From positions 37,837-101,836 of the forward strand of contig JAEURA010000254.1 of NCBI GenBank assembly GCA_016789005.1: a DNA stretch of 64,000 nt, written 5' to 3'. The position numbers were made by a program, and so were the translations under genes. Origin of the DNA: Anaerolineae bacterium (lineage in GTDB: Bacteria > Chloroflexota > Anaerolineae > Aggregatilineales > Phototrophicaceae). The notes under the pieces are model-generated. The model did not search any database. It worked only from the letters and a program-made list of their open reading frames with translations, and had not been told where the DNA came from. This document shows, piece by piece, positions 46,650 to 63,789 of this stretch; position 1 is the first letter of the stretch; every line of letters begins with the position of its first letter.

Positions 46650-47527
46650 CCCTCTCGCGTCGCGACTTTCTAAGGATTTTCGGCGGCTCTGCGGCAGCTG
46701 CCGTCGGTGGATTCGCCCTGGCATTTTCGCCGACGGGTCCGACGGCAAGCGATGCAGACCTGAAGAGCTTTCAGGCGCGCGCGCTGCACACCGCCCCGGT
46801 TCGAGAAATGCCTTCCCCTGAGTCACCGGTCGTAAAGTACCTGTGGGAAGACGAGATCTTCGACGTTCAGGCGGCAGTCGGGCGGTGGATGCAGTCGTCC
46901 GAAGGATTCATTGCCGCGCATGATGCTCAACCGATGCTGGTGACTGCGTTGCTGGAGATGCACGATACTCCCCACTGGGCGGCGGTGGTCGGTGCAGCAG
47001 CGGCAGTGCGCGCCTGGGCGTGCGACTCTGCGCCACTCATCGAAAAGATCGGTCATGGCGGCGTGATGCGAGTCCTCGACCGCCTCGCACCGAGGGCGGC
47101 GTGCGATGCCTGGGTCGCCATCGCCGACGAACACGACAGAGTGATTGGTTGGTCGCGGAATACGCTGTGGTCCGCGATTGGCTGGCGCACGACTGCCGAC
47201 GCGGATCTGATCGTCGATGCTGCTCTGCGCCGCGCCGAATTGTGGGAAGCCGGAGCTGCACGCCTGTGCGCCGACGTGGCGCTGGGACGAGCGCTGGTTC
47301 CCGGCGAATATCCGGTCACGCTGTACCAGCCAGGGACAACCATTGAGGCAGCCGGACACACCCGACTCGGAGTCCCCTATGTTCAGCGCGCAGGTAATGA
47401 ACTGAGCCTCGGCGGCGTCTATTGGCATAATCAATTCGGCGCTGCACTGGACGGGCTGGATATTCAACTTCCTGTACAGATCGCGCGGGCGTGGTTCGGA
47501 CGCCTTCGTCGCGTCATCGTTCGTTAA
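46646..47527 (+). CDS. Tat-exported protein with SH3-like repeats and degenerate YkuD (L,D-transpeptidase) domain
   Basis: SRRDFL Tat motif; GVPY...GGVYWHNQFGAALDGLDIQL lacks the HG..SHGC catalytic residues. Confidence 0.65.
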   Translation: MTLSRRDFLRIFGGSAAAAVGGFALAFSPTGPTASDADLKSFQARALHTAPVREMPSPESPVVKYLWEDEIFDVQAAVGRWMQSSEGFIAAHDAQPMLVTALLEMHDTPHWAAVVGAAAAVRAWACDSAPLIEKIGHGGVMRVLDRLAPRAACDAWVAIADEHDRVIGWSRNTLWSAIGWRTTADADLIVDAALRRAELWEAGAARLCADVALGRALVPGEYPVTLYQPGTTIEAAGHTRLGVPYVQRAGNELSLGGVYWHNQFGAALDGLDIQLPVQIARAWFGRLRRVIVR

Positions 47528-47582
47528 TCAATTGCCGCTACACTCGATATACGATCAGGCGTAGCAAGAGCAGCAGGTCATT

Positions 47583-49196
47583 ATGGAAGTCACATTAGCA
47601 CTGGCATTCATCGCGGGTCTGGCGTCGTTCCTGTCGCCCTGCGTACTCCCTCTCGTCCCGGCATATATCGGCTACATGGGTGGTCGGGTAGCGTACACCG
47701 TCGCGGCTCAGACCACGTCTGGCGGAACAGCCGTGCTGAAACCTTCGCTTGGCGCACGTTTCAGCACGCTCCTGCACAGCCTCGCTTTCGTCGCCGGTTT
47801 TTCGCTGGTGTTCGTCAGCATCGGGCTGCTCAGCACTGCCTTCGTATCGGTCATCGGCAGGCAGAACGTCAGCGCCGTCACCGGCATCATCAGCCGTGCC
47901 GGTGGGGTGCTGATCATCTTCTTCGGGCTGCACTTCATGGGCGTCATTAATCGCCTGTTCACGGTAATTCTAAAACGCCCGAAATCGCTGAATACTCCCA
48001 TCATCGGTATCGCGATCATTGCCGTGCTCAGCTTTCTGACCCTCTGGATCTTCGAAGACTGGCTGCCAGCACTGCCCGTCGCGGCGCTGTTGACGGTGTG
48101 GCTGGTGCTCTCCGGCGCATTCACTGAGCCTGGGACGTTTTGGACCGCCGCCATTGGGAAGGTTCAGGCTTGGCTGTATACCGACACGCGCCGGCAGATG
48201 GTGGCGCAGGGTCAGCAAAGCTACCTGAGTTCGTTGGTGATGGGTGTCGTCTTCTCCGCCGGGTGGACGCCCTGCATCGGACCGATCTACGGGACTATTC
48301 TGACGATGGCTGCCGCCGGCGGCGATGTGGGTCAGGCTGGCAGTCAGCTCGCCGCTTACTCGCTCGGTCTCGGCATCCCCTTCATACTCGCGGCGCTCAT
48401 GCTTGACAGCGCCCAGGGCATACTGCGCCGATTGCAGCGCTATCTGCACGCCATTGAGCTGGCGGCAGGCACTTTCCTGGTTGTGATCGGCATCCTGGTG
48501 GCAAGCGGGCAGCTGCAATCGCTGAGTCAGAATTTCGCCAATCAGTTCGCCGATTTCTCCTATCGTCTGGAGGAGTGCGCAGTTGATCTCTACGAAGGAC
48601 GCTTGAACTTCGGGGGGTTCGTGAGCTGCGCAAGCGCCGCGCAAGCGGCTGAAACCGATCCGGTTGACGGTACCAGCAGCGACACCGCCGCGCCGCTGGA
48701 AGTCGTCAGTATCACCGACCTGGCGGGCAGTATCCCATCTGCCGATCCCTCAGCGGCGCTTCCGCAGCAAACTGGCACCGCCATCGGCAGTCTTGCGCCG
48801 CTGTTCAGCGCTCTCGACGATTCAGGACAGCCCTTTACCTTGGAAGATGTGCGCGGTCAGACGGTGCTCCTCAACTTCTGGGCGACCTGGTGCGGACCCT
48901 GCCGCATCGAAATGCCGGAGCTGCAACGGACCTACGAGATGTATTCGGAACGCCAGGTGCTCGTGGTCGGGGTCAACAATCGCGAGACGCTTGAAGACGT
49001 CGCTGGTTTCCGGCTGGAACGAAGCCTGACCTTCCCGCTGCTGATGGACGAGGCAGGCAGCATTCAGGATGCCTACGGCATTCAGGCGTATCCGAGTACA
49101 TTTGTGATCGACCGCACGGGCGTCATTCGGGGAATCCATTATGGTCCGCTGACCAGAGGGCAGATTCAGGCGCTCCTTGACGAAGCGCTCTCGTAA
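47583..49196 (+). CDS. CcdA (DsbD TM domain)-thioredoxin fusion, DipZ-like
   Basis: SPCVLPLVP and WTPCIGP cysteines; C-terminal NFWATWCGPCRIEMP. Confidence 0.88.
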   Translation: MEVTLALAFIAGLASFLSPCVLPLVPAYIGYMGGRVAYTVAAQTTSGGTAVLKPSLGARFSTLLHSLAFVAGFSLVFVSIGLLSTAFVSVIGRQNVSAVTGIISRAGGVLIIFFGLHFMGVINRLFTVILKRPKSLNTPIIGIAIIAVLSFLTLWIFEDWLPALPVAALLTVWLVLSGAFTEPGTFWTAAIGKVQAWLYTDTRRQMVAQGQQSYLSSLVMGVVFSAGWTPCIGPIYGTILTMAAAGGDVGQAGSQLAAYSLGLGIPFILAALMLDSAQGILRRLQRYLHAIELAAGTFLVVIGILVASGQLQSLSQNFANQFADFSYRLEECAVDLYEGRLNFGGFVSCASAAQAAETDPVDGTSSDTAAPLEVVSITDLAGSIPSADPSAALPQQTGTAIGSLAPLFSALDDSGQPFTLEDVRGQTVLLNFWATWCGPCRIEMPELQRTYEMYSERQVLVVGVNNRETLEDVAGFRLERSLTFPLLMDEAGSIQDAYGIQAYPSTFVIDRTGVIRGIHYGPLTRGQIQALLDEALS

Positions 49197-49206
49197 CGAC
49201 ACGCCT

Positions 49207-49749
49207 ATGCGCAAGCCGCTGCTGCTGCTGGGATCCCTCGTAAGCTGGCTCATCGCGCTGCTGGTGATCGTCAGCTCAGGACTGCCAGAGCGGGCGTTTT
49301 ACACCGGAGTCTCTCGGAGCGGCGGTCTGCTCGTAGCGCCGGAAATCGGCTCCCTGGCTCCTCCTTTTCAGGCGGCGACGCTAGACGGCAGCATCGACTC
49401 GGCACGACTGCTGGGGCAACCCGTCCTGCTGAACTTCTGGGCGACCTGGTGCGCGCCGTGCGTCCTCGAAATGGTGGAGCTTCAGCGTATCCACGAGACC
49501 CACCCGTCCGTCGTCGTGGTCGGCGTCAACCTCGGAGAGTCCGCATCGGCGGTCAGCGCCTGGGCGAAGGCGCACCGCCTGACTTTCGACCTGGTGCTCG
49601 ATCCTGCCGGCAGCGTCGCCCGTCTTTACGCCCTGCGGGGTCAGCCGTCAACCTATGTGATCGCGCCTGATGGTACAATTCGACAGATATTCTTCGGCGC
49701 GGCGGATGCGGCGGCGTTCACAGGAGCGCTGCTTCCGCTGATCCGCTGA
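49207..49749 (+). CDS. TlpA/ResA-like membrane-anchored thioredoxin
   Basis: N-terminal TM helix, NFWATWCAPCVLEM, PSTYVI. Confidence 0.9.
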   Translation: MRKPLLLLGSLVSWLIALLVIVSSGLPERAFYTGVSRSGGLLVAPEIGSLAPPFQAATLDGSIDSARLLGQPVLLNFWATWCAPCVLEMVELQRIHETHPSVVVVGVNLGESASAVSAWAKAHRLTFDLVLDPAGSVARLYALRGQPSTYVIAPDGTIRQIFFGAADAAAFTGALLPLIR

Positions 49750-49798
49750 AGAGGCTGACGGACATGCCGGACGACGCGACAAAGGATACGCCGCTCGT

Positions 49799-50599
49799 AT
49801 GACGACGCCAACATCTGAACGCCGCAGCGCCGCGCTGCGCCTGAACCTCTGGCTGCTCTGGCTGTCGCGGCATTGGCTGCGCGTCGCCCTGATCGTCCTC
49901 GGCATCTACGCCGCCCTGCCCTGGGTTGCGCCGACTTTGATGCACTTCGGGCTGGCAGGTCCGGCGCGGGTGCTGTACTTCGTCTACGGTCCCTTCTGCC
50001 ATCAGTTTGCCTTCCGGTCCGTCTTCCTGTTTGGCGATCAAGCCGCCTATCCCCGTGAGATTGCCGGGACCGATCTGACGCCCTACGAGGTGTATGTCGC
50101 AGACTCGCCGGAGTTCGACGACGCGCTAAAGAACTGGATCGCGCGTCCGCAGAGCCGATACGACAGCATCGGGGCGTTCGATCCCAGGGAGTGGACGTTC
50201 GATCTTCAGTTTGCCTCCAAGGATTTCTTCGGCAGCCCGCAAATGGGTTACAAGACCACGCTCTGCCAGCGCGACCTGGCGCTGTACGCCGCGATGTTCG
50301 CCGGCGGGTTGATCTACAGCCGTCCGTTCATCCGGCGTCGCCTGCGTCCGATTCCTCTGCTGCTCTACATCTTCGCCGGCGGGCTGCCCATCGCCATCGA
50401 TGGCTTCAGTCAGCTCCTAGGCTATCCCCCGATTTCGCTGTGGGAACCGCGCGAGACTACACCGGCATTCCGCATCATCACCGGAGCAGTTTTCGGGTTG
50501 ATGACCGCCTGGCTGGCTTTCCCCTATCTGGAAGAGTCCTTCAGGGAGACGCGCCGGGAATTGGAGGCGAAACTGCGGCGGGCTGGCATCGACGTGTAG
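49799..50599 (+). CDS. DUF2085 family membrane protein
   Basis: FCHQ and LCQRD motifs, PIAIDGFSQL, RIITGA.FG. Confidence 0.8.
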   Translation: MTTPTSERRSAALRLNLWLLWLSRHWLRVALIVLGIYAALPWVAPTLMHFGLAGPARVLYFVYGPFCHQFAFRSVFLFGDQAAYPREIAGTDLTPYEVYVADSPEFDDALKNWIARPQSRYDSIGAFDPREWTFDLQFASKDFFGSPQMGYKTTLCQRDLALYAAMFAGGLIYSRPFIRRRLRPIPLLLYIFAGGLPIAIDGFSQLLGYPPISLWEPRETTPAFRIITGAVFGLMTAWLAFPYLEESFRETRRELEAKLRRAGIDV

Positions 50600-50613: not shown

Positions 50614-53106
50614 TCAACGCCATCCCCGCCAGGCGGTCGTCATCTGAGCGATTCGTGCAGCAGCGGCATCGCGCTGTGTCTCTACAATCCGCGACGCCGT
50701 CAGCAGCAGCACGCCGCCAGCCAGAGGGATCAGCCAGGGGTTGAGGCGCGCCGTCAGGAACAGAATACCGAAGAGCAGCACGATGGTGCCCGACAGGAAA
50801 GTGCGCCGGCGGTGGAAGATCGTCCCATGCAGCGCCAAACCAACCGCAGCCGCTCCGCCAGTGAGCCAGATCAACGCGCGGTCGGCAGATGGTGCGTCCG
50901 CCGGGGTCACAGCGGATTGAGCAGCGGTCACGTACGCCAGTAGCCCAATCGCCAGTGTCTCAAGTGAAGCCCTTCCCGCCTGATCGAAATGGGCGATCAG
51001 CAAGAGCGTCAGCGCAACCGGGATGTTTTGCAGCGCCACGCCATCCAGCTTCACCCCATAGAGCGTCAGCCACCAGGCACACCAGATGACGACAACTGCG
51101 CCCAACCGCCAGAGCGGTTCGCGGAGGAAAACGATCAGGACCAGACTCGCCAGAAAAAGTACTTTGGCGATCTGATTCACATAGGCAAATCCACCGCTGG
51201 GACCGAAGAGGTGCACAGCTGCGACAGCGATCAGCGTCCCAGCGATGACAACGGGCCGGGGTGACCCTTTCTGCTGACGCGCCAGCGCCAGGGCGACGAT
51301 ACCGATGGAGAGCAGTCCGAGCAGTGTGGCGGGCGGCAGGCTGAGCAGTCGGCTAGCTTGCAGCACCACAAACGCGGTCTGCATCAGAGCGACCGGCAGC
51401 CAGTAGCCGCGTCCGGTGCGGAAAAGCTGTTCGGCGCTGATCCCCAGCCCGAATATGGCGGCGATCACCGCTTCGCTCGGCGCGAAGAATACTTGCAGCA
51501 GCCCAATCCCCCAGAGTAACCAGCCCGCCGAGTGTACCGTCCACCCGGCGACATCCGGGATGCGATCCAGCAACCACCCTACCATGAACCAGGCGCTCGA
51601 GATCAGGACAAGACCCAGCCCCTGACGCTGGGCGGGCAGTCCCAGCGCGCCGAGGATGATCTGAAACCAGATGGCGGCGAGCCACGCCCCAAGGAGCAGG
51701 AAGGCGCTGCGAATCACGCGGTGCGCATAAGGTCGCCGTGCCGGCGGCGCAATCCAGGCGGCGAAGCCGTCCCAGAGCGGATGTTTCCCAAGCAGGACGA
51801 GCGCCGCGCTGATCAGGCTTGCCAGCACGGCGATCCCTAGATGGAGCGGCATCGTCCGCTCATCGGCGAGCGCCAGCCCGGCACCGATCAGCGCGTATCC
51901 CACGACGAAAAACGGAGCGCGCACCCCCGTGCGGAGTCGCGTCATAGCGTGACCGATGACCAGCAGCAAGACGCCGACCGCCTGCCAGACAAGACCAAGT
52001 ATCGGCAGAGATGTGAAAATGAGGTTACTGCTAATCAGCCCCATGCTCAGCGGGAATGGTGCGACGTAGAGCGCCAGGTGGGCGAAGATCGGCAGACGAT
52101 AGACGATGCCCTGCGCCAGCCACAGCGCCGTCAGCGCCAGCAGTGTCAGCGTCAGGGCGGCGTGATCCATCGTCGCCAGATTGGCAGCGGTGGCGAGCAG
52201 GCTGACGATGCTCAGACCGACGGAAACATCGGCTGTCGTCCAGCGAAACATTGCCCCCAGCATGCCCTGGACTTTTTTGCCCTTCCCTCCGCCGGAGCGG
52301 GTTACCTGACCTATCAGCACCGCCAGCGCCGCCGGCAGGATGATCCAAAGGGCAAACGTTTCTGGGCTGCCGACCCAGGTGCGGTGCGCAAATGTCCACA
52401 CACCGGCGAAGCCCCAGGCGGAGAGATGCGCCAGTACTCTCAAGCGGGTCACAACCCCCAGAATAGCGATCAGCGCTGATGCGGCAAGCCAGGTCAGGAT
52501 CGCCGCCGCCGGGAAATCCGTCGCCAGAAGCAGCATTTGTGCCGAAACCGCCATCAGAAGCAGAAAAGCGCCTGTACGATAGACCCGACGCCAGAATGGC
52601 GTGGCATGGGGAAACAGCAGCCACACGGCAGCGGCGCATGGGATGCCAAGCGCCGTCAGGTAAGGCTGTGCCAGCGCCGGAAATGTGCTGATGGCGGCGG
52701 CAGCGAAGTTCAACTGAAGGAGCAGGATCATCGGCGCGATCAGGAGATTTCGCGTGCGCCCTCCAACGATTGTCACCGCTACAGCAGCGATCAGCGAGGC
52801 GAACAACCAGAAGGCGTTCGACCAGCCGTCAGAAAGCGCCGAGCGGAGGTCGAGAAGCTGAACCAGCGCCACGCCCACCAGCCAGGCGGCAGCCGTCGAA
52901 AGCGCGCCGGTCACCAGGGGCGCATTGCCTGCCCGGCGCGAAAGCACGCTTAACCCCAACAGCGTCGCGGGCATACTGATGGCGGCGGTGACGCGAACCA
53001 GAAAGGAATCCGTCTGCAGATCCTTCCCCAGAAACAGCAGAGAGATCACCAGCAGGGCGCTGCCGGCGTAGGTCGTCAGCGCCAGAGTCCACCGTGAGCG
53101 TTCCAT
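50614..53106 (-). CDS. Large polytopic membrane protein (about 830 aa), SCO7613 C-terminal-like
   Basis: Almost continuously hydrophobic; C-terminus WLIPLAGGVLLL...E.QR...W; GGAGG RBS before ATG 53106. Confidence 0.7.
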   Translation of the reverse strand: MERSRWTLALTTYAGSALLVISLLFLGKDLQTDSFLVRVTAAISMPATLLGLSVLSRRAGNAPLVTGALSTAAAWLVGVALVQLLDLRSALSDGWSNAFWLFASLIAAVAVTIVGGRTRNLLIAPMILLLQLNFAAAAISTFPALAQPYLTALGIPCAAAVWLLFPHATPFWRRVYRTGAFLLLMAVSAQMLLLATDFPAAAILTWLAASALIAILGVVTRLRVLAHLSAWGFAGVWTFAHRTWVGSPETFALWIILPAALAVLIGQVTRSGGGKGKKVQGMLGAMFRWTTADVSVGLSIVSLLATAANLATMDHAALTLTLLALTALWLAQGIVYRLPIFAHLALYVAPFPLSMGLISSNLIFTSLPILGLVWQAVGVLLLVIGHAMTRLRTGVRAPFFVVGYALIGAGLALADERTMPLHLGIAVLASLISAALVLLGKHPLWDGFAAWIAPPARRPYAHRVIRSAFLLLGAWLAAIWFQIILGALGLPAQRQGLGLVLISSAWFMVGWLLDRIPDVAGWTVHSAGWLLWGIGLLQVFFAPSEAVIAAIFGLGISAEQLFRTGRGYWLPVALMQTAFVVLQASRLLSLPPATLLGLLSIGIVALALARQQKGSPRPVVIAGTLIAVAAVHLFGPSGGFAYVNQIAKVLFLASLVLIVFLREPLWRLGAVVVIWCAWWLTLYGVKLDGVALQNIPVALTLLLIAHFDQAGRASLETLAIGLLAYVTAAQSAVTPADAPSADRALIWLTGGAAAVGLALHGTIFHRRRTFLSGTIVLLFGILFLTARLNPWLIPLAGGVLLLTASRIVETQRDAAAARIAQMTTAWRGWR

Positions 53107-53216
53107 GAAAGCGCCTCCTATACGCGCATCCTCTGCCTTCAGCATAGAAGGAACGCCGGACGGATGGAGTAGGCGCTGCGTACGTCGCCTCCATGACAAA
53201 TGTCCAGAGGTGAGAC

Positions 53217-54467
53217 TCAGGATGTGCGGTTCACCGGAAGGTCGAGCGTGAAGGTTGAGCCAATACCAGGCTGACTGCTCAGATGGATGTCACCGCCGTG
53301 CAGACGAGCGATCTCCAGGGCGATCGCCAGTCCCAATCCTGCGCCGGGGGAATCGGTCGACAACCGAACGAATGGCAGGAACACCAGATGCGCCTGGGAT
53401 TCGGCGATGCCTGTGCCGGTGTCCTGCACTTCGATGCGCGCGTGATCTTCGCGCAGCACGGTGCGAATCGTGATCTGCCCCTGCCGCGTATACTTGGCAG
53501 CATTGGTCGCCAGGTTGCTGATCGCCTGTCGCAGTCGCAGCGGATCGCCGTCGATCTCGATCAGGGCGGGATCGAACTCCGTCTCCAGCCGTACTCCGGC
53601 GTGGAGCATCTGCCGCGCCTCATCCGCCGCCTGTGCGCACAGGGCGTTGATCGAACAACGCGCATAGTTCAACGACAGGCTTCCTGAACTCAGGCGCGCG
53701 CTGTCCAGCAGATCGCCCACCAGCCGGTCGAGATGCTCTCCCTCGCCGATGATCTGTTCCAGATAGGCGCGCTGAGGTTCTGCCGATGCGCTGCGGCGCA
53801 GCAGTTTGGCAAAACCCAGCACCGAATTCAGCGGCGTCCGCAGTTCGTGGCTGACGCGCGCCAGGAAGCGATGGCTCTGCTGACGCACTTCTTCTGCGAC
53901 GTGCGCTGTGCTGATGTCGATGGACAGATGACTGAGAAAGCGGAGCGTCTGGAAGGTGTAGGCGGCGAGCAGGATGTCGTAACTCACCAGGATGGAGCGG
54001 CTGGGTTCCAGCCGGGGCGCGCCGGGCAGCACCTCGAACACGAGGTTGACCCAGAAGGCAGCGATGCACAGGACCTGCACAAAACCGCGCTGCCGTCCCG
54101 AATACAGCATGCCGCTGATCGTGTAGGGGATGAGCGTGGTCAGCGCCGTCACCGGTCCCAGCCCCAAGATGACCATCCCCTGCAAGCCAAAAACGGCGAC
54201 GAGAGAGATCATCCAGAACAGTGATGCGCCGCCAAACCACCCCACCCCATAGATGAACGCCACAGCGCCTGCCAGAATGCCATATGCCCAGGGATGCGGC
54301 ACGTCCTGAAAGACCGCCGCCGCCCACAGGACGACCTCGCCCAGCACGAGCTGCCAGCCGCGCGTGCGCCAGTAGCGGTCGATCTGCGCCTGCGCCGTCG
54401 CCTGGACCGGTGGTGGGAGGAGGTTATCTTTGTCCGGAAGCAGCCCGCTGAAGAGTTCGCGCCACAT
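53217..54467 (-). CDS. Membrane sensor histidine kinase (HisKA-HATPase)
   Basis: SHELRTPL, NLATNAAKY, DTGTGI, F.PF, GAGLGL, GSTF; N-terminal TM bundle. Confidence 0.95.
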   Translation of the reverse strand: MWRELFSGLLPDKDNLLPPPVQATAQAQIDRYWRTRGWQLVLGEVVLWAAAVFQDVPHPWAYGILAGAVAFIYGVGWFGGASLFWMISLVAVFGLQGMVILGLGPVTALTTLIPYTISGMLYSGRQRGFVQVLCIAAFWVNLVFEVLPGAPRLEPSRSILVSYDILLAAYTFQTLRFLSHLSIDISTAHVAEEVRQQSHRFLARVSHELRTPLNSVLGFAKLLRRSASAEPQRAYLEQIIGEGEHLDRLVGDLLDSARLSSGSLSLNYARCSINALCAQAADEARQMLHAGVRLETEFDPALIEIDGDPLRLRQAISNLATNAAKYTRQGQITIRTVLREDHARIEVQDTGTGIAESQAHLVFLPFVRLSTDSPGAGLGLAIALEIARLHGGDIHLSSQPGIGSTFTLDLPVNRTS

Positions 54468-54783
54468 CGTCGGGGTCCAGGGGCTTTCTCAGATAGATGA
54501 ATTCGAAACCCGTCTGTCGCAGCGCGCAGGTTTGGTCGAAAGCGGAGGTGATGATCGTCGGAGCCTCGTGCAGGGCGCGAAGATCCTTCGCCAGACTGTA
54601 GCCGTCGCCATCCGGCAGGTCGAGGTCTATGATGTAGACATCCGGTGGATCGCTCGCTGCGCGCTGGCGCGCTTCGGCGCATGATGCGGCAGTCACCAGC
54701 CGGTGCGGAGTCAGATCGCGAATGATCGCCTCCATCAGGAAGCGCGCCGGGGGATGATCCTCGACGTAGAGGATCAGGCTCAT
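54424..54783 (-). CDS. Single-domain response regulator (REC only)
   Basis: YVEDH, IIDLDLPDGDG, ITSAF, RKP; 119 aa. Confidence 0.92.
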   Translation of the reverse strand: MSLILYVEDHPPARFLMEAIIRDLTPHRLVTAASCAEARQRAASDPPDVYIIDLDLPDGDGYSLAKDLRALHEAPTIITSAFDQTCALRQTGFEFIYLRKPLDPDDVARTLQRAASGQR

Positions 54784-55592
54784 CGTGTGACCTCATCGAT
54801 CAGGCGGTCCACACGCTCCGCCTCGGCGATAATCTGCTCGATCAGCTCCTCGGCGTCCGCCTGTTCCAGCCTGCCCTGCCGTTCCAGCCGTCCCGCCAGC
54901 AGACGCGCCAGCCCCATGAGCGTATGCAGCGGCGTGCGCAGTTCGTGGCGCACATGGGCATCAGCGCGCGGAAGTTCGCGCAGCGCTTCGGCGGCGCGCA
55001 GTGCACCTTCGCGATGATCAACATTGAGCTTGGCGTAGATGTTCGACCAGTGATTGCGCACCGTGCCGTGAGAAATGCCCAGCGCTGCTGCCGTCGCCTG
55101 GTTATCGTGACCGCTCGCCGCCAGCCGCAGAATAGCGCGTTCGCGATCGGTCAGGCGGCGCTGGCGGCGCGCCTGCGTCATGCCCAGGATCGCCGTCTGC
55201 GACAGGAATGGGCGTCCCTGGGCGACGGCACGCACGGCATCGACCATATGCAGCGAGAAGTCGTCGCTTTTCACAACGTAGCCGTGCGCTCCGGCGTCGA
55301 GCAGATCGTCGATCCAGACCGGATCGTCATAGGCGGTGAAGATCAGGATCTTCATCTGAGGTGAGCGGGCGAGCGTCTCGCGGACGAAGCTTGCCGGGTC
55401 GAACGCTGCGCCGGCAAACGCCAGATCGAGGACCAGCACATCCGGCGGAAACTGCTGAACCAGCCGGGGCAGCGTCGCAGGCTCCCCGGTTTCCCATAGG
55501 ATAGTCACATCCAGCGCCCGCGTCAGTTCCTGCCGCAGCACCTTCAGGATGAGGGGGTGATCATCTGCCAAACCGATTTGGATCGCCGCCAT
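54780..55592 (-). CDS. NarL/LuxR response regulator with C-terminal HisKA (DHp) domain
   Basis: ADDH, VLDL, FTAY and VVKS receiver motifs; LTDRERAIL...TVRNHWSNIYAKL HTH; then HELRTPL...EAERVDRLIDE. Confidence 0.9.
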   Translation of the reverse strand: MAAIQIGLADDHPLILKVLRQELTRALDVTILWETGEPATLPRLVQQFPPDVLVLDLAFAGAAFDPASFVRETLARSPQMKILIFTAYDDPVWIDDLLDAGAHGYVVKSDDFSLHMVDAVRAVAQGRPFLSQTAILGMTQARRQRRLTDRERAILRLAASGHDNQATAAALGISHGTVRNHWSNIYAKLNVDHREGALRAAEALRELPRADAHVRHELRTPLHTLMGLARLLAGRLERQGRLEQADAEELIEQIIAEAERVDRLIDEVTR

Positions 55593-55644
55593 GCCCGCAT
55601 CATTTCGTATCATCTGTCCGCGATTGTACCCCGTAAAAACAACA

Positions 55645-55676
55645 GAGGGGGGAGTCGTTCTGGCGACTCCCCCCTC
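55645..55676 (-). terminator. Rho-independent terminator of the tad cassette
   Basis: Perfect 13-bp stem GAGGGGGGAGTCG/CGACTCCCCCCTC followed on the - strand by TGTTGTTTTT. Confidence 0.85.
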
Positions 55677-55733
55677 CGCTTGATGGTGACTCAACCTCAC
55701 CCCTGGAGCACAGGAGTGAGGCTGTTCCTCTGG

Positions 55734-58718
55734 CTAGCCGCCCGCGCCGCTGTCCGTCGGAAGCGGCGGCAGCGTGTTCGTCGGCGTCCGTGTCGGCGAT
55801 GGCGTCGGCGTGTTGGTCCGCGACGGTGTCGGCGACGGCGTATTCGACGGCGTATGCGTGGTCGTCGGCGTGTTCGACGGCGTGAAGGTCTGCGTCGGCG
55901 TTCGCGACGGCGTCCGCGACGGCGTGTTCGTCGGCGTGTTGGTGATCGTCGGCGTCCGCGACGCCGTGTTCGACGGGGTGAACGTCGGCGTATTGGTGAT
56001 CGTCGGCGTCCGCGATGGCGTATTCGTCGGCGTCCGCGATGGCGTATTGGTGATCGTCGGCGTGTTGGTCCGCGTCGGCGTATTCGACGGCGTATTGGTG
56101 ATCGTCGGCGTCCGCGATGGCGTGTTCGACGGTGTATTCGTCGGCGTATTGGTGATCGTCGGCGTGTTGGTCCGTGACGGCGTCGCCGTGATCGTCGGCG
56201 TGTTGGTCCGTGTCGGCGTCCGCGACGGCGTCCGGGTGATCGTTGGCGTGCGCGACGGCGTGATCGTCGGCGTGTTCGACGGCGTCCTCGTGATTGTTGG
56301 CGTCCGCGATGGCGTGCGCGACGGCGTCAAGGTGGTCGTCGGCGTCTGCGACGGCGTGTACGTCTGGGTCGGCGTGCGCGATGGCGTGCGCGACGGCGTC
56401 AGCGTGGTCGTCGGCGTGTTGGTCGTCGTGCTGGTCGCCGTATTCGTCGGCGTCGGCTGGACGGTCGAAACGTCGGTCACAATCGGAGTCGGGCAGGACG
56501 GCGCGTCAATGTAGAAGACACTGCCGTCGAAATCCTGCGGAAGCGATCCGAAATCGACCGCCACCGTATTGCCCGCGCCGCCACTGAAGATGAAGAAGAG
56601 CGATTCCGTCGCGCCCGGCGGGATGGTGATCACGCTGAGCCACGTCCCCTCAATCGGCGACACGCCCGATGTGGCGCTGCCGCTGGTTGTATCGGCGGCG
56701 GTATCCGGTCCCGCCCACATCTGCACGCTGCTGGAGTCGCCCGGTGCAGCGCCAAGCCCCCAGACCTGCGCCAGCGTCATCGCCGGAGCGCGTGTATCAG
56801 CAGCGGACCACTCCAGTCCGAAGCCGAGCACGGTCGCCGGGCTGAGCACACGGTTGTTGGTGATGTCGAAGCGAACGATGTCGAGATTCTGGAAGATGAC
56901 CGACGACACGCTGACCAGATCCGGTTCGCAGGCGGGCGTGCTCGTCGCCGTTGGTGTCGGTCCCGGCGTGTTGGTTGGAACCGTCACGTTGAAGACGGTC
57001 GCGCAGTCGGTCGTGCCGTTCAGGTCGTCGTAATAGAACGTCGTGCCATTGAAACCAACCTGCGGCATCACGCTCGGATTCAGCACCAGCGGAGCGTTGG
57101 CAAACTGCACCAGGAAGGCGTTCGCGCCCGGCTGGATGAGCAGGTTCGCACCCACCGCGAAGTCATACTCAGGCGTCCCGGATATCGGCGTCGGCGTCCC
57201 GGAACCAACCGTGACGATGTAGCCGACATCGGTCGGCGATGGGTTATCGGACCCAGTCCAGACGACCGAACCCGGCGTCCCCAGCCGGAACAGCTGAGTC
57301 GACAGGTCAGGGTAGCCCGCAATCGAGGGCCAGACCAGCTGAACGCGGCGAAGCTCGACGGAGTACGGCAGGCTGTTGGTCAGCGTGAAAGTGACCGTTC
57401 GGTTCACATAGTTGATGGTGCTGCCAACCGTCACGTTGCTGCACTGGAACACCGGCGTCTGCGATGGCGTCCGCGATGGCGTCACCGAAGCAGTTGTGGT
57501 CGGCGACGGGGTGTCTGTTGGAGTCGGCGAATGATTCGGCGTATCCGTATAGGTCGCCGTGTCCGTTGGGGTCGCCGTGTTGACGCCCGGAGCCGTCGGT
57601 GTTTCGTAGGAAGCATCAATCGGCTGGGGAGCGCGGAAGGCTTCATTGACAGCGATGCGCCGCGCCTGAAGCGGGACAAACGGCGCCAAGCCCAGCGGGG
57701 TCACCAGCGGATGGTTGAAGGTCACGACCACCGCGATGGTATCTCCCGCGCCACCGGCATCCCAGAAGGACACGCCTTCGTCAATCGAACCGCTGCCCTT
57801 GTAGGCGTTATCAGTCCATCCGTCCGCTTCCAGATCGCCCCCAGCGGTGGGGTATTCGCGCAGGAGGCAGACAGGTGCACGGGGATCGGTATTCGCGCCA
57901 AAACCGCCCTGGTTCAGGATAGGCGGGAAGCGGAAGCGCTGCGCATAATTGTTCGCCGACGGCTCGTTCGCCTGGCGAAGCTTTGGTCGGCTGCTGCAAA
58001 CCATCACGTCGAACCAGCCCGGTTCATCAGAGAAGCGCTGCCGATAGTATTGGGGCGGCGTCAGCGCGTCGCTGTCGTGGTCGCCCGGAAGCGGGCGATA
58101 CCAGGGATAGAACCAGGGGAGGTTCGCGAAGTCGGGATAGCTGGCGTCGAGAGTCCCAGGAACACCCACAGGCGGCAGGGGCAGCTGCTGCGGTCCAAGC
58201 GCCAAGCCGGCTGCGCCGAGACGCGCCTCATCGTAGATGGAAAGGATGCGTGCCAGGTCTTTGCGGCGATTCTGATCTTCGGTGTCGCCGGGGTCGCAGT
58301 CGTCGCCGCCATAATAGGAGGCGTACAGGCTTTCAACGCCCCCCACGAAGACTTCGATGGCGCGCGCTCCGGTATAGGGAGTCATCGTCGTCGCTGTGCC
58401 GCGCTGCGCCAGATCGACCACGATATCGCCCGTATTCTTGGCGCAGGGCACGATAGAATTCAGGTCGCCTGTGTAGACCGGATCGGTCTGATCGTACAGG
58501 CGAAGATCCAGCTGATATTTCACTTCATCGTACTGACCGGTCGCCGCCAGGCGCGCCGCCGCTCGCGCCGAGTTCTGGAGCGTCACCCAGGCTTGAAAGA
58601 TGCGTCCGAACTCGATCACGCCGAACAGCAAGATCAGCAGTATCGGCAGAGTGAGCGCAAACTCCACCAGAGTCTGCCCTCTTCGACGTGTACGTACCTC
58701 AATGACTTGTTCTGCCAT
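55734..58718 (-). CDS. tadE: Giant TadE-family pseudopilin with two repeated extracellular modules and Pro/Thr tail
   Basis: [27 protein letters not shown] prepilin motif; TadE C-terminal strands [12 protein letters not shown]; PT-rich segments. Confidence 0.85.
55737..56492 (-). repeat. Low-complexity Pro/Thr repeat region ([10 protein letters not shown])
   Basis: About 250 aa dominated by TP, TPT, NTP and SRTP units. Confidence 0.9.
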
Positions 58719-58772
58719 AGCTCCCCCGGCGCTAGACTAGACCCACTGACGCAGCCATAATGCAGCGCGGCG

Positions 58773-61616
58773 TCATCCTGACAGCCTCGTAAACATCCTC
58801 GAAGCGATTTCATGGAACACTTCGGCAAGCTCAGCGCCGCCTGAAGCGTTGAAGTAATTGCCGCAGTCCTGCTGCGGCGCGACCGGCTGGAACGTGCCAC
58901 CCGGATTCGCCGGGCTTACCGGCGTCGTCTCTTCGCAGGCGCCACGCGCGCCCCAGTCGGGCGGCGCATTGCCGATTCTGCCGCTGATCTGCGCCTGCCA
59001 GTAATCAGCATCGATCTGGAAGTTGTCGCCGACATCGGCGATGTAGCGCAGCAGCTCTTCGCCCAGATAATCCTGGCGCAGAATCTCCTGATGTGTCTTA
59101 TTCGTCCGCGGGGTCGTACCACGCATACAGGCAGCGTCACCGCCGCAGGAGACGGCGGTCCCGGCATCGTAGTTCAGCCCGAAGCCGATGGTGAAGATCG
59201 TCGGCAGAAGCTGATCCGAAAGGCGCGACGTCCCCGCATCATCGACGACCGCGCCGGGGAGATCGGACAGCCCGATCCAGTCCGCCCAGTCGCGGGCGTA
59301 GTCGTCCACGTCGTAAAACTGATAGCAGTTCAGCGGATAGTCATCCATGCGCAGCAGCGCCGGATTCACCGCCGTCGTGCCGCACTGCGTGCGGGTAGAT
59401 GGCTCCAGGTCCATGCAGTAAGGCGGAACGGTGTCGATCAGCAGTTCGCCATTGACGGCATCAGAGCCATAAGGACACACGCCATAAACGCCGTATGCTT
59501 CGTTCGGCAGCGGATAATCGGCAGGCGTATTCAGCGGGCTGTTGTTGCCCAAGGCGTTGAGCGGGTTGTTGTAGAAATTGCCGCTCACTTCGACCAGATT
59601 GTAGGGCTGCGGTTCAGACAATCCGGCATAGTCTCCGGTGCGGGTGACCGGGTCGCTCGCGCCTGCCGCACCGTCGCTCAGCAGCACCATGACCCAGACT
59701 GCGCCTTCACGGCGGGCGGTGGCATAAAGCGCATCCGCGCCGGCGCGCAGCGCTCCGCCAATATTCGTCCCTCGGCAGGAGCCGCGAAACTCATAGCTGA
59801 CGGAAGGCTTGCTGGTGGAACCAGTGTACCAGTGCGGAACTGAGTGAATGTCCGTCAGGAGCATCTGATCGTAGGGACGCGCCGAACCATCGGGCAGTGT
59901 ATCGTGCAGCGTCCAGAAGTTCCAAAGATTTGCCGAGTCGAATGGACAGGCGCCGCGCACCGGATTGTCTTTCAGATTGCCGATGAGCGTACCGTCGAGT
60001 CCATCATAGGTCTTGGGTGTGCCGTAATCGAGCAGGCTGTCCCACTGTCCGTCGTTGTCGGCGTCGTAGTAGGTGGAGTCTTCGGCGCGTACGCCAACCA
60101 TCGCGTTGAGCACGTTGTTCGCCCCGCGGCGCAGCAGCGTCGTGCCATCCGTATCGAACAGGTCGAATTCCGTCTCGATCATCGCCGACTGCAACCCATT
60201 GCCGTCCGGGTCGATGATGGTGGCAAAGCGGTCGAAGGTGACGAACGCCACACGGTCGCCGCGCAGGAAATCGAGGCGCGCCAGAAATTCCTCGGCGGCA
60301 TCGCGCGCTTCGCGGAAGGGCTGGCAGACCAGATCATCGAAGTTGAAATCGCCGTCGGGGTCGTTACAGCAGCCAAAATAATCGTACTGCGGCACGAAGC
60401 CGCTGAAGTTCTTGCTGAGCGACGGGTCATCGGCGTCTGCTGATGTTCCGCCGAACTGCTCGGCGTAGCTGGTGCCGAAATAGCCGTACAGCTCGGTGCG
60501 GAAATCCGCCTGCGCCGGTGAGCGCCCGCCGATGACGGAGTTCGGATACGCCCGGACGCGGCAGAATTCGCGCGGCTCCTCACGCCCGACCGGAGAACTC
60601 CCCGCGCCGGTGTACGCCTGCCACGTCCCCGCCGTCGCCCCCGGCTCGAACTTGACGACCGGATCGTAGATCGCCCAGCCAACGTCGTCGTCGCCATCGA
60701 CCAGGGTCCGGTCACAGTTAGCAGGATCGGCGGGAGCCGAAAGTGCCGAATAGATTGAAGAGTTCAAACCATCCACGCCACCCTGCGTGCTCAGAAGGAT
60801 CATCTCCCAGGGGTTGCACCGGCCCGGGGTGAGCGCATTGCCATCGGGATCGCTTTCGCCGCCAAAATCGTAGGCTTTGACGTAGGGCGGCATATAGCGC
60901 ACGCCCAGTCTGTCTCGACCGGCGTCACCCGTGTATTCCGGGATCATGTCCCAGTCATCGTAGGTCGTTTCATTGAGCATGGACTCCGAAACGTCGAAGA
61001 CCAGGACGACATCAATGACGGCGGTCTGCGACAGCGCCGACTCAGTCAGGGTGATCGTGTCGTAGCCCAGCAGCCGCATGAAGATGGTCGGCGCTTCGAT
61101 CTGCGCCGTCACACGCACGACTTTCAATTCATCTTCGGTGCACAATTCGCGATAGCGCCGCACATCGTCCTGGTTCGCGGCGAGGTTGGGCGTCCCGTCA
61201 GAATTGAACAGCGCCGTCCCGTCCCGGTCCAATGGCGCCTCGGTCACCGCATCGCGCGGGACCTGCTGGAAGCGGCAGGTCTCGACCAGCACGTCGGTCG
61301 GGCTTAAGCCGTACAGCTCGATGAACTCGCGCGCGGCAAGGCTGAGCTGGGCGACGCTTTGCGCTTCATCCTGGGCGATTCCATCGGTGGGAGTCTCATC
61401 GATGACGCGCCGCATCTGCCCCGCAGCCGCAACCGACGCCGCGTCGACCGCGCGCCGCATCGTGCTGTAGCGGATGAACAGCAGCGATACGTCGGTGACG
61501 ATGCCGACAAAACCAAGCAGCCCGATAAACCCAATCGCCAGCACAACGAGCGCCTGACCGGTCTGCCCTCTTCGGACAAAGTGCCTGGTTATCGCTGACA
61601 GAAAACGCTTCATCAT
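58773..61616 (-). CDS. tadG: TadG-like pseudopilin with vWA domain
   Basis: GQALVVLAIGFIGLLGFVGIVTDV prepilin motif, MIDAS DVSES, TNIGGAL, VLLSDG, FTIGFG. Confidence 0.85.
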   Translation of the reverse strand: MMKRFLSAITRHFVRRGQTGQALVVLAIGFIGLLGFVGIVTDVSLLFIRYSTMRRAVDAASVAAAGQMRRVIDETPTDGIAQDEAQSVAQLSLAAREFIELYGLSPTDVLVETCRFQQVPRDAVTEAPLDRDGTALFNSDGTPNLAANQDDVRRYRELCTEDELKVVRVTAQIEAPTIFMRLLGYDTITLTESALSQTAVIDVVLVFDVSESMLNETTYDDWDMIPEYTGDAGRDRLGVRYMPPYVKAYDFGGESDPDGNALTPGRCNPWEMILLSTQGGVDGLNSSIYSALSAPADPANCDRTLVDGDDDVGWAIYDPVVKFEPGATAGTWQAYTGAGSSPVGREEPREFCRVRAYPNSVIGGRSPAQADFRTELYGYFGTSYAEQFGGTSADADDPSLSKNFSGFVPQYDYFGCCNDPDGDFNFDDLVCQPFREARDAAEEFLARLDFLRGDRVAFVTFDRFATIIDPDGNGLQSAMIETEFDLFDTDGTTLLRRGANNVLNAMVGVRAEDSTYYDADNDGQWDSLLDYGTPKTYDGLDGTLIGNLKDNPVRGACPFDSANLWNFWTLHDTLPDGSARPYDQMLLTDIHSVPHWYTGSTSKPSVSYEFRGSCRGTNIGGALRAGADALYATARREGAVWVMVLLSDGAAGASDPVTRTGDYAGLSEPQPYNLVEVSGNFYNNPLNALGNNSPLNTPADYPLPNEAYGVYGVCPYGSDAVNGELLIDTVPPYCMDLEPSTRTQCGTTAVNPALLRMDDYPLNCYQFYDVDDYARDWADWIGLSDLPGAVVDDAGTSRLSDQLLPTIFTIGFGLNYDAGTAVSCGGDAACMRGTTPRTNKTHQEILRQDYLGEELLRYIADVGDNFQIDADYWQAQISGRIGNAPPDWGARGACEETTPVSPANPGGTFQPVAPQQDCGNYFNASGGAELAEVFHEIASRMFTRLSG

Positions 61617-61642
61617 ATCGATGCCCACTCAACTCGACTGGA

Positions 61643-62818
61643 TTACGGGTCAGGGAAAACGATGAACGGCTCGACCGCGGGAAGCGGGAACGCCGCCCAT
61701 ACGTAGATGATCATCTTGCCGTCTTCGTTGCCCACCGCAGTGAAGACGGGCGACAGCACCGGAATCTTCAGCAGCATCTCGTGTTCCCAATACATTTCGA
61801 CCAGCGAAATGCCCTGCCCCGGAATCATCGTGCGTGCGTCGTTATCGAGAATTTCGTAATTCGGAAGGTTGACCAGGTCCTCGATCCGGCGCATCGTCCA
61901 TTCCGAACCGACGCAGGCGGTTCCGGGAATCCTGTGGTTTCCGAACAGCGAAAAACCGACCTGCTTCTCGGCAGCGGCGACGCTTCCGGCAGGAACGTCG
62001 AAATCGCCTAGATCGCCGTGTTCGGTGAAGTCGTTGGAGCTGTCCAGGACCAGCGTCGCTTCGCGTTGGTCCCACTGATTGTTGTCATTGAGATCAAAGG
62101 GATCGCGCGGTTCGCGCGGCACAACGGCATAAACGCCGGGGGAAGTTTCGGCGACATCGCATTCATTAGTCTCTGCCGGGTAGCGTCCCACGACGACCAG
62201 CTGAGGGATATCACCGGCGACCGGGCGATCCACAGGGAGCCAACCGGAGAACGTGCGCGGATCGACGTTTTCCACCGCGTAGCCGGTCACAATAATGTCG
62301 TCAATATCGTTAGCCTCGTTGAGCGACAGCGGTTCCAGGGAGATCAGCATGGTGCAGATCACTTCATTGAAGAAGAGACGGTCCACCGAAGTGGTGTCGC
62401 ACGCGCCAGTACCAGCTGCCGCATCGACGGCATTCCAGCGATACCGCTCGCGGTAGGTGTCTTTTGATTTGGGTGGTATTTCCAGCGCCAGCGCATCTTC
62501 AGCGGCGGTGTACGCCATCTGGTAAGGCAGGTCCAGCTTGCTCCAGGGGACGAAGCTGAATTCACGGAACCAGGCATCGGCGATTGGCGACTGCTGGTCG
62601 ACCAGCGCGGTACCGCGGCGCGCCCCAGCGCGGGTCACATCCAGGATGGACAGGTAATTGTTGGCGAACCAGCCGATTTCAACCAGCCCGGCGAGCAGAA
62701 TGATCAACAGCGGCGTGACGAGCGCCAGCTCCACCATGCTCTGCCCCGCCTGCCGACGACCATACTCGGCGGGTGTGCCATCGAGGACCTGCAGGATTTT
62801 CTTCAGGATCGTGCGCAT
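61643..62818 (-). CDS. tadE: TadE-family pseudopilin, enlarged
   Basis: AGQSMVELALVTPLLIILLAGLVEIG, DATRVGARYG, C-terminal GMVLVELFWEHELL. Confidence 0.85.
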   Translation of the reverse strand: MRTILKKILQVLDGTPAEYGRRQAGQSMVELALVTPLLIILLAGLVEIGWFANNYLSILDVTRAGARRGTALVDQQSPIADAWFREFSFVPWSKLDLPYQMAYTAAEDALALEIPPKSKDTYRERYRWNAVDAAAGTGACDTTSVDRLFFNEVICTMLISLEPLSLNEANDIDDIIVTGYAVENVDPRTFSGWLPVDRPVAGDIPQLVVVGRYPAETNECDVAETSPGVYAVVPREPRDPFDLNDNNQWDQREATLVLDSSNDFTEHGDLGDFDVPAGSVAAAEKQVGFSLFGNHRIPGTACVGSEWTMRRIEDLVNLPNYEILDNDARTMIPGQGISLVEMYWEHEMLLKIPVLSPVFTAVGNEDGKMIIYVWAAFPLPAVEPFIVFPDP

Positions 62819-62877
62819 CACCAGTTCGCTCGTCTTGTGGAGATAAGCCGGGGAATCCTAGGGCTTCCCGCAGTTTC

Positions 62878-62952: not shown

Positions 62953-63654
62953 TCAGGCTTCGTCGTCCACCAGCACGCGCGCCTTGACCACATAGCCCCT
63001 ACCATGACGTGACTGAATGACCGCTGGACGTTCCGGGTCGTCCTCGATCTTGCGGCGGAGGTTGTGAATGTGATTGCGCACCAGCGCCGCATCGCCGACG
63101 CCTTTAGGATACTGCCACACGCCGGCAAGCAGGTCTTCCGTCGAATGCAGTTTGTGCGGGGCGCTGCACATATACTTCAGAAGGTCGAACTCGACACGGG
63201 TCAGGGTAAGTTCTCGGCTCTCCATGAATGCCCGAAACTGCGTAGGAACGATACGCAGGATCGGAACACTTTCTTCACCGTAGAGTGCCGACCGGCGGAT
63301 GTGCGCGCGGACCCGGGCGATCAGTTCGCGGGGCACGAATGGCTTGCGGATGAAATCGTCACCGCCAGAATTGAGTGCATCCACCACGTTATTGGAGGAT
63401 GTATTCCCTGTCAGGAAGATGATCGGCGTATTGGATGTCTGCGGGTGCGCCCGCAGTTTCCGGCACAGCGTGATGCCATCCATCTCTGGCATCATGGCGT
63501 CGATCACGAAAAGATCAGGCGTCTGGTCAGCAGTCTGCTCAAGCGCATCAAACCCCGAAGAGGCACGTTTTACCGTGAACCCTTCGCGGCGCAGCACAAG
63601 CTCCACCATATCCAACATCTGAATATCATCATCGACAATCATGATTTCGTACAT
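62953..63654 (-). CDS. OmpR/PhoB family response regulator
   Basis: IVDDD, IDAMMPEMDG, FLTG, KPF, LTRVEFDLL, VRNHIHNLRRKIE, GRGY. Confidence 0.95.
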   Translation of the reverse strand: MYEIMIVDDDIQMLDMVELVLRREGFTVKRASSGFDALEQTADQTPDLFVIDAMMPEMDGITLCRKLRAHPQTSNTPIIFLTGNTSSNNVVDALNSGGDDFIRKPFVPRELIARVRAHIRRSALYGEESVPILRIVPTQFRAFMESRELTLTRVEFDLLKYMCSAPHKLHSTEDLLAGVWQYPKGVGDAALVRNHIHNLRRKIEDDPERPAVIQSRHGRGYVVKARVLVDDEA

Positions 63655-63789
63655 TGTGCTACCCGACTTCGTAGTTCGAACTTGTATGAAGTATAGCTGG
63701 TCCAATGCAATTGCAGCATGGCGCTACCGTGAATAATTCATGAAATGCGCGGCGCTGAAAGGCTTCACCAGGAGGCAGTCGAAGCGCTT

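Follow-up and report, generated by a model that had tools for sequence, protein, structure and literature searches.

We examined a 64,000-nucleotide stretch of DNA (hereafter, the window) from an Anaerolineae bacterium (Chloroflexota; contig JAEURA010000254.1, positions 37,837 to 101,836) and found that it encodes a DNA-binding response regulator ending in a dimerisation and histidine phosphotransfer (DHp) hairpin. The gene, here named RRD (55592..54780 of the window, minus strand; 270 amino acids plus stop), encodes a receiver domain (REC), a LuxR/GerE-type helix-turn-helix (HTH) and a HisKA/DHp domain, in that order. It is the first gene of a conserved, translationally coupled cassette, in which it is followed by a stand-alone receiver and a HisKA kinase. 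Four potential relay sites are intact and encoded together: His207 of the kinase, Asp53 of the lone receiver, His216 of the RRD tail and Asp56 of the RRD receiver. We propose that these sites may form a four-step phosphorelay, running from His207 to Asp53, then to His216 and finally to Asp56, and we assign this reading a probability of roughly 45%. As found, the system combines known modules through a fusion and wiring that have not been described, and it is confined to a single order of Chloroflexota.

RRD is a NarL-type regulator extended by a HisKA domain

RRD matched three Pfam families, Response_reg (E 4.7e-11), GerE (E 2.3e-15, above the cut-off) and HisKA (E 3.6e-10). The receiver domain (approximately residues 4-125; 55218..55583, minus strand) has an intact active site composed of D10, D11, D56, T86 and K108, with the D56 codon at 55427..55425. 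It is followed by the LuxR/GerE-type HTH (approximately residues 147-199; 54996..55154, minus strand). With an acidic pocket, phospho-Asp, Thr and Lys in the receiver and a four-helix GerE/LuxR HTH as output, residues 1-205 are those of an ordinary member of the NarL/FixJ/DevR family. The closest solved structures were DevR (3c3w), ChrA (4yn8), VraR, LiaR, DesR and NarL, while NCBIfam matches were all far below their cut-offs. Sequence and fold matches in the PDB covered approximately residues 2-217, and no PDB entry extended past the HTH of RRD by either measure. Unlike the matched family members, RRD does not have its HTH at the C-terminal end, since a DHp domain follows.

The HisKA match scored 40.2 bits against a gathering score of 26.9 and covered profile positions 7-57 of 66, with the H-box His lying on helix 1 of a predicted hairpin. 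No HATPase domain was detected in RRD by the Pfam scan, and the protein lacks the HATPase_c/CA domain with N, G1, F and G2 boxes that an autokinase carries. Because there is no HATPase match and the stop codon comes 54 residues past His216, RRD is not a kinase. A preliminary description of the window had reported an intact receiver and HTH followed by a DHp that ends at the stop with no HATPase; the Pfam assignments bear this out, and the interval that it named, 54780-54965, corresponds to residues 210-270 plus the stop codon.

The tail is a minimal DHp hairpin

The tail (residues 210-270; 54783..54965, minus strand; stop codon 54782..54780) is a HisKA hairpin of approximately 60 residues. His216 is encoded by CAC at 54947..54945 within the H-box HELRTPL, so the phospho-His codon is kept, as the preliminary description had stated. 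A Pro-containing linker, LRELP(K/R)PGA (residues 204-212; 54957..54983, minus strand), joins the last HTH helix to the hairpin, and His216 lies only 3-4 residues into the helix that follows the linker, in the second turn of helix 1. In the cassette kinase, helix 1 extends for approximately 20 residues ahead of the His, and the tail lacks this stretch. AlphaFold2, run on a single chain with the family alignment, gave a mean predicted local distance difference test score (pLDDT) of 86.7 and a predicted template modelling score (pTM) of 0.77, and placed helices at residues 210-239 and 244-269.

The tail aligns to the DHp of HK853 from just before His260 through the end of helix 2. Judging from published kinase-regulator complexes (HK853-RR468), we take this to be the receiver-contacting half of a DHp. 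The half that is absent is presumably the part that couples a DHp to sensor domains and to the ATPase domain. We would expect the tail to form a homodimeric four-helix bundle.

Conservation and distribution of the RRD family

We searched 5.8 billion proteins by a word index and obtained 391 clusters; our statements on the family rest on the best 120 of them. These 120 homologues were 55-78% identical, mostly 265-270 amino acids long, and all combined PF00072, PF00196 and PF00512. They came from NCBI, JGI, ENA and Logan assemblies and were annotated only as 'response regulator' or 'LuxR C-terminal-related'. H-E-x-x-T-P was kept in 120/120 homologues, with 46-55 residues following the His. In an alignment of 34 members, D56, K108, H216, E217, T220 and P221 were invariant and the end point was shared. 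Family-wide identity was 73% in DHp helix 1, 75% in the HTH and 67% in the REC, and the linker was the most conserved segment of RRD, at 83% mean pairwise identity. In five close pairs, the ratio of nonsynonymous to synonymous substitution rates (dN/dS) was 0.05-0.30 for the tail and 0.05-0.17 for the rest of RRD; by this estimate the tail is under purifying selection comparable to that on the rest of the protein.

This conservation bears on the simplest role that could be given to the tail, namely that the hairpin merely joins two LuxR HTH domains and that its H-box is a leftover without phospho-chemistry. DHp domains dimerise by definition, and the last HTH helix, which the tail directly follows, mediates dimer contacts in NarL/GerE proteins. 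Dimerisation has also been proposed for archaeal REC-(PAS)n-HisKA proteins (Galperin et al. 2018, PMC5847659). However, the H-box His, Glu, Thr and Pro are kept in 120/120 sequences despite overall identities of 55-78%, whereas the His is gone from known non-catalytic DHp domains such as that of DivL. An obligatory extra receiver, described below, would also go unexplained. We therefore regard pure dimerisation as improbable.

The same data dispose of an artefact. The window belongs to a fragmented metagenome bin of 352 contigs, so we considered whether the gene might be an assembly chimera or might stem from a frameshift that joined a truncated kinase gene to the regulator; the preliminary description had likewise named a chimera, or a His not conserved in homologues, as grounds for abandoning its reading. 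The same 265-270-amino-acid architecture with the same end point occurs in at least 120 clusters from independent assemblies of all four sources, 38 species-level genomes carry it, some of them on contigs of 0.5-2 Mb, and its tail is under purifying selection. The His is kept throughout. We thus give an artefact practically no credence.

The 38 genomes were found among 185,579 species-level genomes, with the gene either near full length or truncated by a contig end. All are Chloroflexota metagenome-assembled genomes named Anaerolineae, Aggregatilineales, Phototrophicaceae or Candidatus Flexifilum, the last of which is classified in Anaerolineae; Aggregatilineales. Candidatus Flexifilum is a filamentous wastewater bacterium. 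Within Aggregatilineales, RRD occurred in 21 of 201 sampled genomes (13 of 88 genera), and within the genus of the window in 2 of approximately 9 genomes. It was found in 0/400 further genomes of a class-level sample and in 0/400 of a phylum-level sample, with six candidates scored per genome in both. The RRD family was thus found only in the order Aggregatilineales (Anaerolineae), where its distribution is patchy. The genome of the window carries one copy, and its other NarL-type genes have no tail.

A profile search of 1.84 billion representatives at 50% identity returned one full-length representative (P0006), fragments and a frameshifted sequence (P0121). Below the family members came plain NarL-type regulators ending near profile position 200. 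The RRD family is a single 50%-identity cluster. No distant relatives with the same architecture appeared in this search, in which ranking by total score would not surface unrelated REC-GerE-HisKA families. Two metagenome homologues departed from the family pattern: P0047 has an internal duplication of the HTH segment, and in P0121 the frameshift directly precedes the His codon. Each of the two is probably a pseudogene or an artefact of assembly or gene calling.

RRD is the first gene of a three-gene cassette

The gene immediately downstream encodes a stand-alone receiver of 119 amino acids with a lone Response_reg match (54424..54783, minus strand), and its start overlaps the RRD stop (ATGA). 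It carries E8, D9, D53, S80 and K100, and the E/D-D pair, D53, S80 and K100 are kept throughout the related loci. The third gene, which overlaps the receiver gene by 44 nt, encodes a membrane HisKA/HATPase_c kinase of 416 amino acids (53217..54467, minus strand). Its N-terminal 185 residues are hydrophobic without a large loop, and the kinase is of the intramembrane type. Its His207 codon lies at 53849..53847 within the H-box HELRTPL, and its N, G1, F and G2 boxes are at residues 318, 349, 363 and 375.

The arrangement is strongly conserved. RRD was followed by a receiver of 113-122 amino acids and then by a kinase of 411-434 amino acids in 17 of the 19 loci with wide flanks, and the same order was found in 35/36 species-level loci with enough downstream sequence. 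The outer neighbours of the cassette differ completely between loci (Tad genes, LexA, glycosyltransferases). Three species-level loci (L045 (= L054), L063 and L064) have an insertion of 0.6-1.7 kb between the RRD and lone receiver genes. The insert in L045 (3316-3837) encodes a protein of 173 amino acids whose N-terminus is zinc-ribbon-like (CxxC...CxxC) and which has a hydrophobic segment at its C-terminal end.

Where RRD stood alone, which was so in two genomes, the receiver and kinase genes were located elsewhere, still paired. No kinase orthologue at E 1e-50 or better was detected in 20 RRD-negative genomes from the same genus or family, whereas orthologues in RRD-positive genomes matched at E 1e-119 to 1e-139. 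Judged from this linkage and co-occurrence, gain and loss affect the three genes jointly, as a single unit. Presence is patchy, and the kinase always disappears along with the regulator; this pattern suggests that the cassette was repeatedly lost or transferred within Aggregatilineales.

The tail resembles the DHp of the cassette kinase

The tail and the DHp of the neighbouring kinase were 41% identical over 69 amino acids (E 2e-9), in line with the parallel drawn in the preliminary description. When a profile of the tail was compared with six-frame open reading frames of the whole genome, the cassette kinase was the best non-self match at 43 bits, while the approximately 20 other HisKA domains of the genome scored 31 bits or less. 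The likeness extends to the helix 1 segment from His+7 to His+15, which reads HTLMGLARL in the tail of the window, HTLLGLARL in most of the family and NSVLGFAKL in the kinases. This is consistent with two DHp domains adapted to a common receiver.

A 22/23-nt match between the two genes had been presented as partly explained by the constraint on the motif and as a sign of local domain duplication. The match is real, and so is the constraint, as it is confined to the HELRTPL codons (20/21 nt). Outside the H-box, nucleotide identity was 20/39 just after the motif, 36/60 in helix 2 and 14/36 before the His. The 23-mer recurs exactly in an unrelated kinase gene on another contig of the genome (C231) and with no more than two mismatches at six further sites. 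Since the match consists of H-box codons that recur in unrelated kinases, it is no evidence of duplication.

The preliminary description had also suggested comparing the DHp with that of the adjacent kinase by phylogeny. In a maximum-likelihood tree of DHp segments, 20 tails formed one clade (support 96/92) and 18 cassette-kinase DHp domains formed a second (support 94/87), and the same loci grouped together inside both clades. The tree, built on 58 columns, left the sister relationship of the two clades unresolved. Given the nature of the 23-mer, the weak flanking identity and the monophyly of the tails, recent local duplication or gene conversion was rejected, and the proposal of a duplication event in the genome of the window was not upheld. 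The tail may nevertheless descend from the DHp of the cassette kinase. If so, the copying would predate the radiation of the family, and both domains would have been co-inherited since. The REC-HTH part, for its own part, resembles 217-amino-acid tail-less Chloroflexota regulators that share an unusual beta3-alpha3 loop (P0123).

The resemblance also raises the possibility that the tail docks onto the kinase, forming a mixed four-helix bundle with the cassette-kinase DHp. In that case, His216 might be phosphorylated in trans by the ATPase domain of the kinase, the transcription factor might be held at the membrane, or the kinase might be inhibited until a signal arrives. Such docking would fit both the closeness of the tail to this DHp rather than to any other HisKA of the genome and the matching groupings inside the two clades. 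Isolated DHp domains can indeed be phosphorylated in trans by a separate ATPase domain, as is known from work on the domains of EnvZ. On the other hand, docking would leave the strictly conserved lone receiver without a role, and with approximately 20 residues of helix 1 missing before the His, a mixed bundle would be only half formed. The tails and kinase DHp domains have been separate clades through the history of the family, and paralogous kinases generally evolve to avoid heterodimers. We consider docking quite unlikely. For the kinase-inhibiting heterodimer named in the preliminary description, our observations spoke neither for nor against.

A possible phosphorelay from the kinase to the regulator

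From the observed architecture, conservation, catalytic residues, gene linkage and co-occurrence, we infer the following order of events, including the dimerisation, each transfer with its direction, and the output. The kinase would autophosphorylate on His207 (H1) and pass the phosphoryl group to Asp53 of the stand-alone receiver (D1), which would act like Spo0F. The group would then move to His216 of the dimeric DHp tail (H2), acting like Spo0B or ChpT, and from there to Asp56 of RRD's own receiver (D2) within the same dimer. Phosphorylation of Asp56 would free or orient the LuxR HTH for DNA binding, and the tail would additionally hold the two HTH domains together as a dimer.

The cassette supplies exactly one each of H1, D1, H2 and D2, and we favour this relay because it is the simplest model that gives every conserved part of the cassette a job. 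Acceptance of the phosphoryl group by the tail from a single-domain receiver, and its transfer to the terminal regulator, would be consistent with the linkage and co-occurrence of the three genes. A weak hint may come from NCBIfam, in which the best matches of the lone receiver and the kinase core were the internal receiver and the core of TorS, all far below the cut-offs. A phosphotransfer module was among the roles put forward in the preliminary description, and it is the best-supported of them, while still a proposal. More tentatively, at somewhat less than an even chance, the cassette would represent a new relay topology: the final transcription factor would itself bear the DHp-type histidine phosphotransferase, a free Spo0F-like receiver would feed it from the membrane kinase, and the last His-to-Asp step would take place in one dimer.

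Several points weigh against the relay. The PDB sequence matches of the lone receiver were ordinary response regulators, not relay receivers. Covariation between the tail and its own receiver, calculated as mutual information with average product correction from 125 sequences (approximately 65 effective, which is too few), gave no interface signal and only noisy high-entropy pairs. Spo0B and ChpT keep a degenerate ATPase-like domain, and the tail is entirely without one. The likeness of the two DHp domains may be plain common descent, and the kinase might phosphorylate Asp56 directly, which would make a relay unnecessary. Finally, the full H-box, including the Thr at His+4 that HisKA phosphatase activity requires, fits a phosphatase equally well.

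These last two points together describe a different device, a built-in phosphatase or sink. Here, the kinase would phosphorylate Asp56 directly and the DHp tail would shorten the lifetime of the signal. Variants include a phosphatase independent of the kinase and a reverse transfer from Asp56 to His216 and on to Asp53 of the lone receiver. The HisKA phosphatase motif H-E-x-x-T is complete and invariant in the tail, and the isolated DHp domain of EnvZ reportedly has phosphatase activity (Zhu, Qin, Yoshida and Inouye, 2000). Strict co-occurrence with the lone receiver would suit a sink as well. Phosphatase activity has also been suggested for ATPase-less HisKA proteins (Galperin et al. 2018, PMC5847659). 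Yet the cassette kinase, with its HELRTPL motif, would normally supply phosphatase activity, so that a second source would be redundant, and the kinase-like receiver-contact residues of the tail would be left unexplained. We consider a phosphatase or sink unlikely, although less so than docking or pure dimerisation.

Comparison with known systems

The proposed His-Asp-His-Asp order has its closest parallels in the Spo0F-Spo0B-Spo0A relay of Bacillus and the CckA-ChpT-CtrA relay of Caulobacter, both of which use DHp-type histidine phosphotransferases. As in those relays, a kinase, a single-domain receiver, a DHp-like His hairpin without autokinase function and a DNA-binding regulator occur together. 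The difference is that the H2 hairpin is here fused to the C-terminus of the final regulator instead of being a separate protein. At the sequence level, the tail is like Spo0B and ChpT in being a DHp hairpin with a His, kept in 120/120 RRD homologues, and in lacking an autokinase ATPase domain. It differs from them in that it belongs to HisKA proper (PF00512), with its H-box complete, and has no degenerate ATPase-like domain; nothing follows helix 2, and Pfam assigns HisKA, not the Spo0B helical domain (PF14689). The tail may thus work like Spo0B without being a member of the Spo0B family.

ArcB, BvgS, EvgS and TorS with their NarL-type partners likewise form four-site relays that end on a LuxR/NarL-family regulator. 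There, the kinase itself carries H1, D1 and H2, the last as a four-helix HPt domain, whereas here H1 and D1 are separate and a DHp-type H2 is fused to D2, an inverse fusion topology. The RedCDEF 'four-component' system of Myxococcus xanthus (PMC2755868) also wires an extra receiver together with kinase-like parts, and its kinase-like protein acts as a phosphoacceptor or phosphatase rather than as an autokinase. In contrast to the RRD tail, RedE has a full kinase architecture and is a separate protein, and RedCDEF does not have a transcription factor with a DHp as its output.

HisKA proteins without an ATPase domain, all of them uncharacterised and some containing a receiver, are listed under 'incomplete histidine kinases' (P2CS) or 'HisKA, no HATPase', and phosphoacceptor or phosphotransfer roles, in addition to phosphatase roles, have been suggested for them in general (PMC5847659). 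The archaeal REC-(PAS)n-HisKA proteins, listed as unstudied with a suggested function in dimerisation (Galperin et al. 2018, PMC5847659), resemble RRD in having a conserved His and no HATPase. They have no DNA-binding output, however, and HisKA is their sole 'output' domain, while the HisKA of RRD follows a complete REC-HTH factor and belongs to a fixed cassette of three genes. The REC-GerE-HisKA case is not covered in a 2026 preprint on HisKA-like profiles. We found no paper on the REC-GerE/LuxR-HisKA order or on a relay in Chloroflexota or Anaerolineae, in a literature search that left subscription journals mostly uncovered, so that absence is unproven. The preliminary description had not recognised the architecture as a described one, and no publication contradicted this. 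It had allowed that the architecture might be common and characterised; common it is, within one Chloroflexota order, while no characterisation has been published as far as we found.

Two-component signalling draws on a small set of modules, and their fusion sets wiring rules such as insulation, direction of flow and checkpoints. If the relay is correct, a DNA-binding regulator that bears a DHp would add a fusion topology to the standard catalogue, which so far has H2 either free or fused to the kinase. It would also mean that a bare HisKA hairpin of approximately 55 residues, cut at the His, suffices for receiver docking and phosphotransfer, and such a minimal DHp would aid specificity studies and the design of synthetic relays. 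The cassette would provide a first functional handle on the many catalogued 'HisKA, no HATPase' proteins. With three genes and approximately 800 residues, soluble except for the membrane part of the kinase, it should be easy to reconstitute.

Gene start and surroundings of the cassette

A GTG at 55700 was considered as an alternative start of RRD. Homologues begin with MxxIRVAL at the position of the ATG at 55592, and a terminator-like hairpin lies inside the extension; the true start is therefore ATG 55592. The hairpin (55641..55680, minus strand) has a 17-bp stem with 11 GC pairs, followed by GTTTTT. From its terminator-like sequence, we take it that it terminates the upstream TadE-like gene. 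The locus of Candidatus Flexifilum affinis (L001) has an equivalent hairpin at the corresponding position.

Thirty nucleotides upstream of ATG 55592 is a -10-like hexamer, TACAAT (55623..55628, minus strand), and TAnAAT or TATAGT hexamers occur 25-45 nt upstream of the RRD gene in most related loci. We infer from the recurrence of these hexamers that the cassette probably has a promoter of its own. k-mer counting in 20 loci revealed no shared operator motif upstream of RRD, the -10-like hexamers being the only signal.

On the minus strand, a 994-amino-acid TadE-like gene, RRD, the 119-amino-acid receiver gene and the 416-amino-acid kinase gene form a head-to-tail run, followed by the gene for an 861-amino-acid membrane protein. 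This polytopic protein (50614..53199, minus strand) has approximately 20 hydrophobic segments and belongs to no Pfam or NCBIfam family. Of the 19 wide-flank loci, 5 have a homologue of it after the cassette kinase (33-58% identical, present only as patches in some of them), and the 861-amino-acid protein may for this reason be an accessory or a target of the cassette.

The TadE-like protein upstream of RRD (58718..55734, minus strand) contains long Pro/Thr repeats. It is the last of three enlarged Tad-type pseudopilin-like genes at 55734-62821 on the minus strand, encoding a TadE of 392 amino acids, a Tad/TadG-like protein of 951 amino acids and the TadE of 994 amino acids. The same TadE block lies ahead of the cassette in Candidatus Flexifilum affinis (L001), whereas more distant loci do not have it there. 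An OmpR-type regulator is encoded at 62953-63705. On the other side of the cassette, a run of redox genes on the plus strand (45861-50599) encodes a molybdopterin oxidoreductase-domain protein, a DsbD_TM-thioredoxin fusion, an AhpC/TSA-type redoxin and a DUF2085 protein, and this run is syntenic with the Flexifilum affinis locus.

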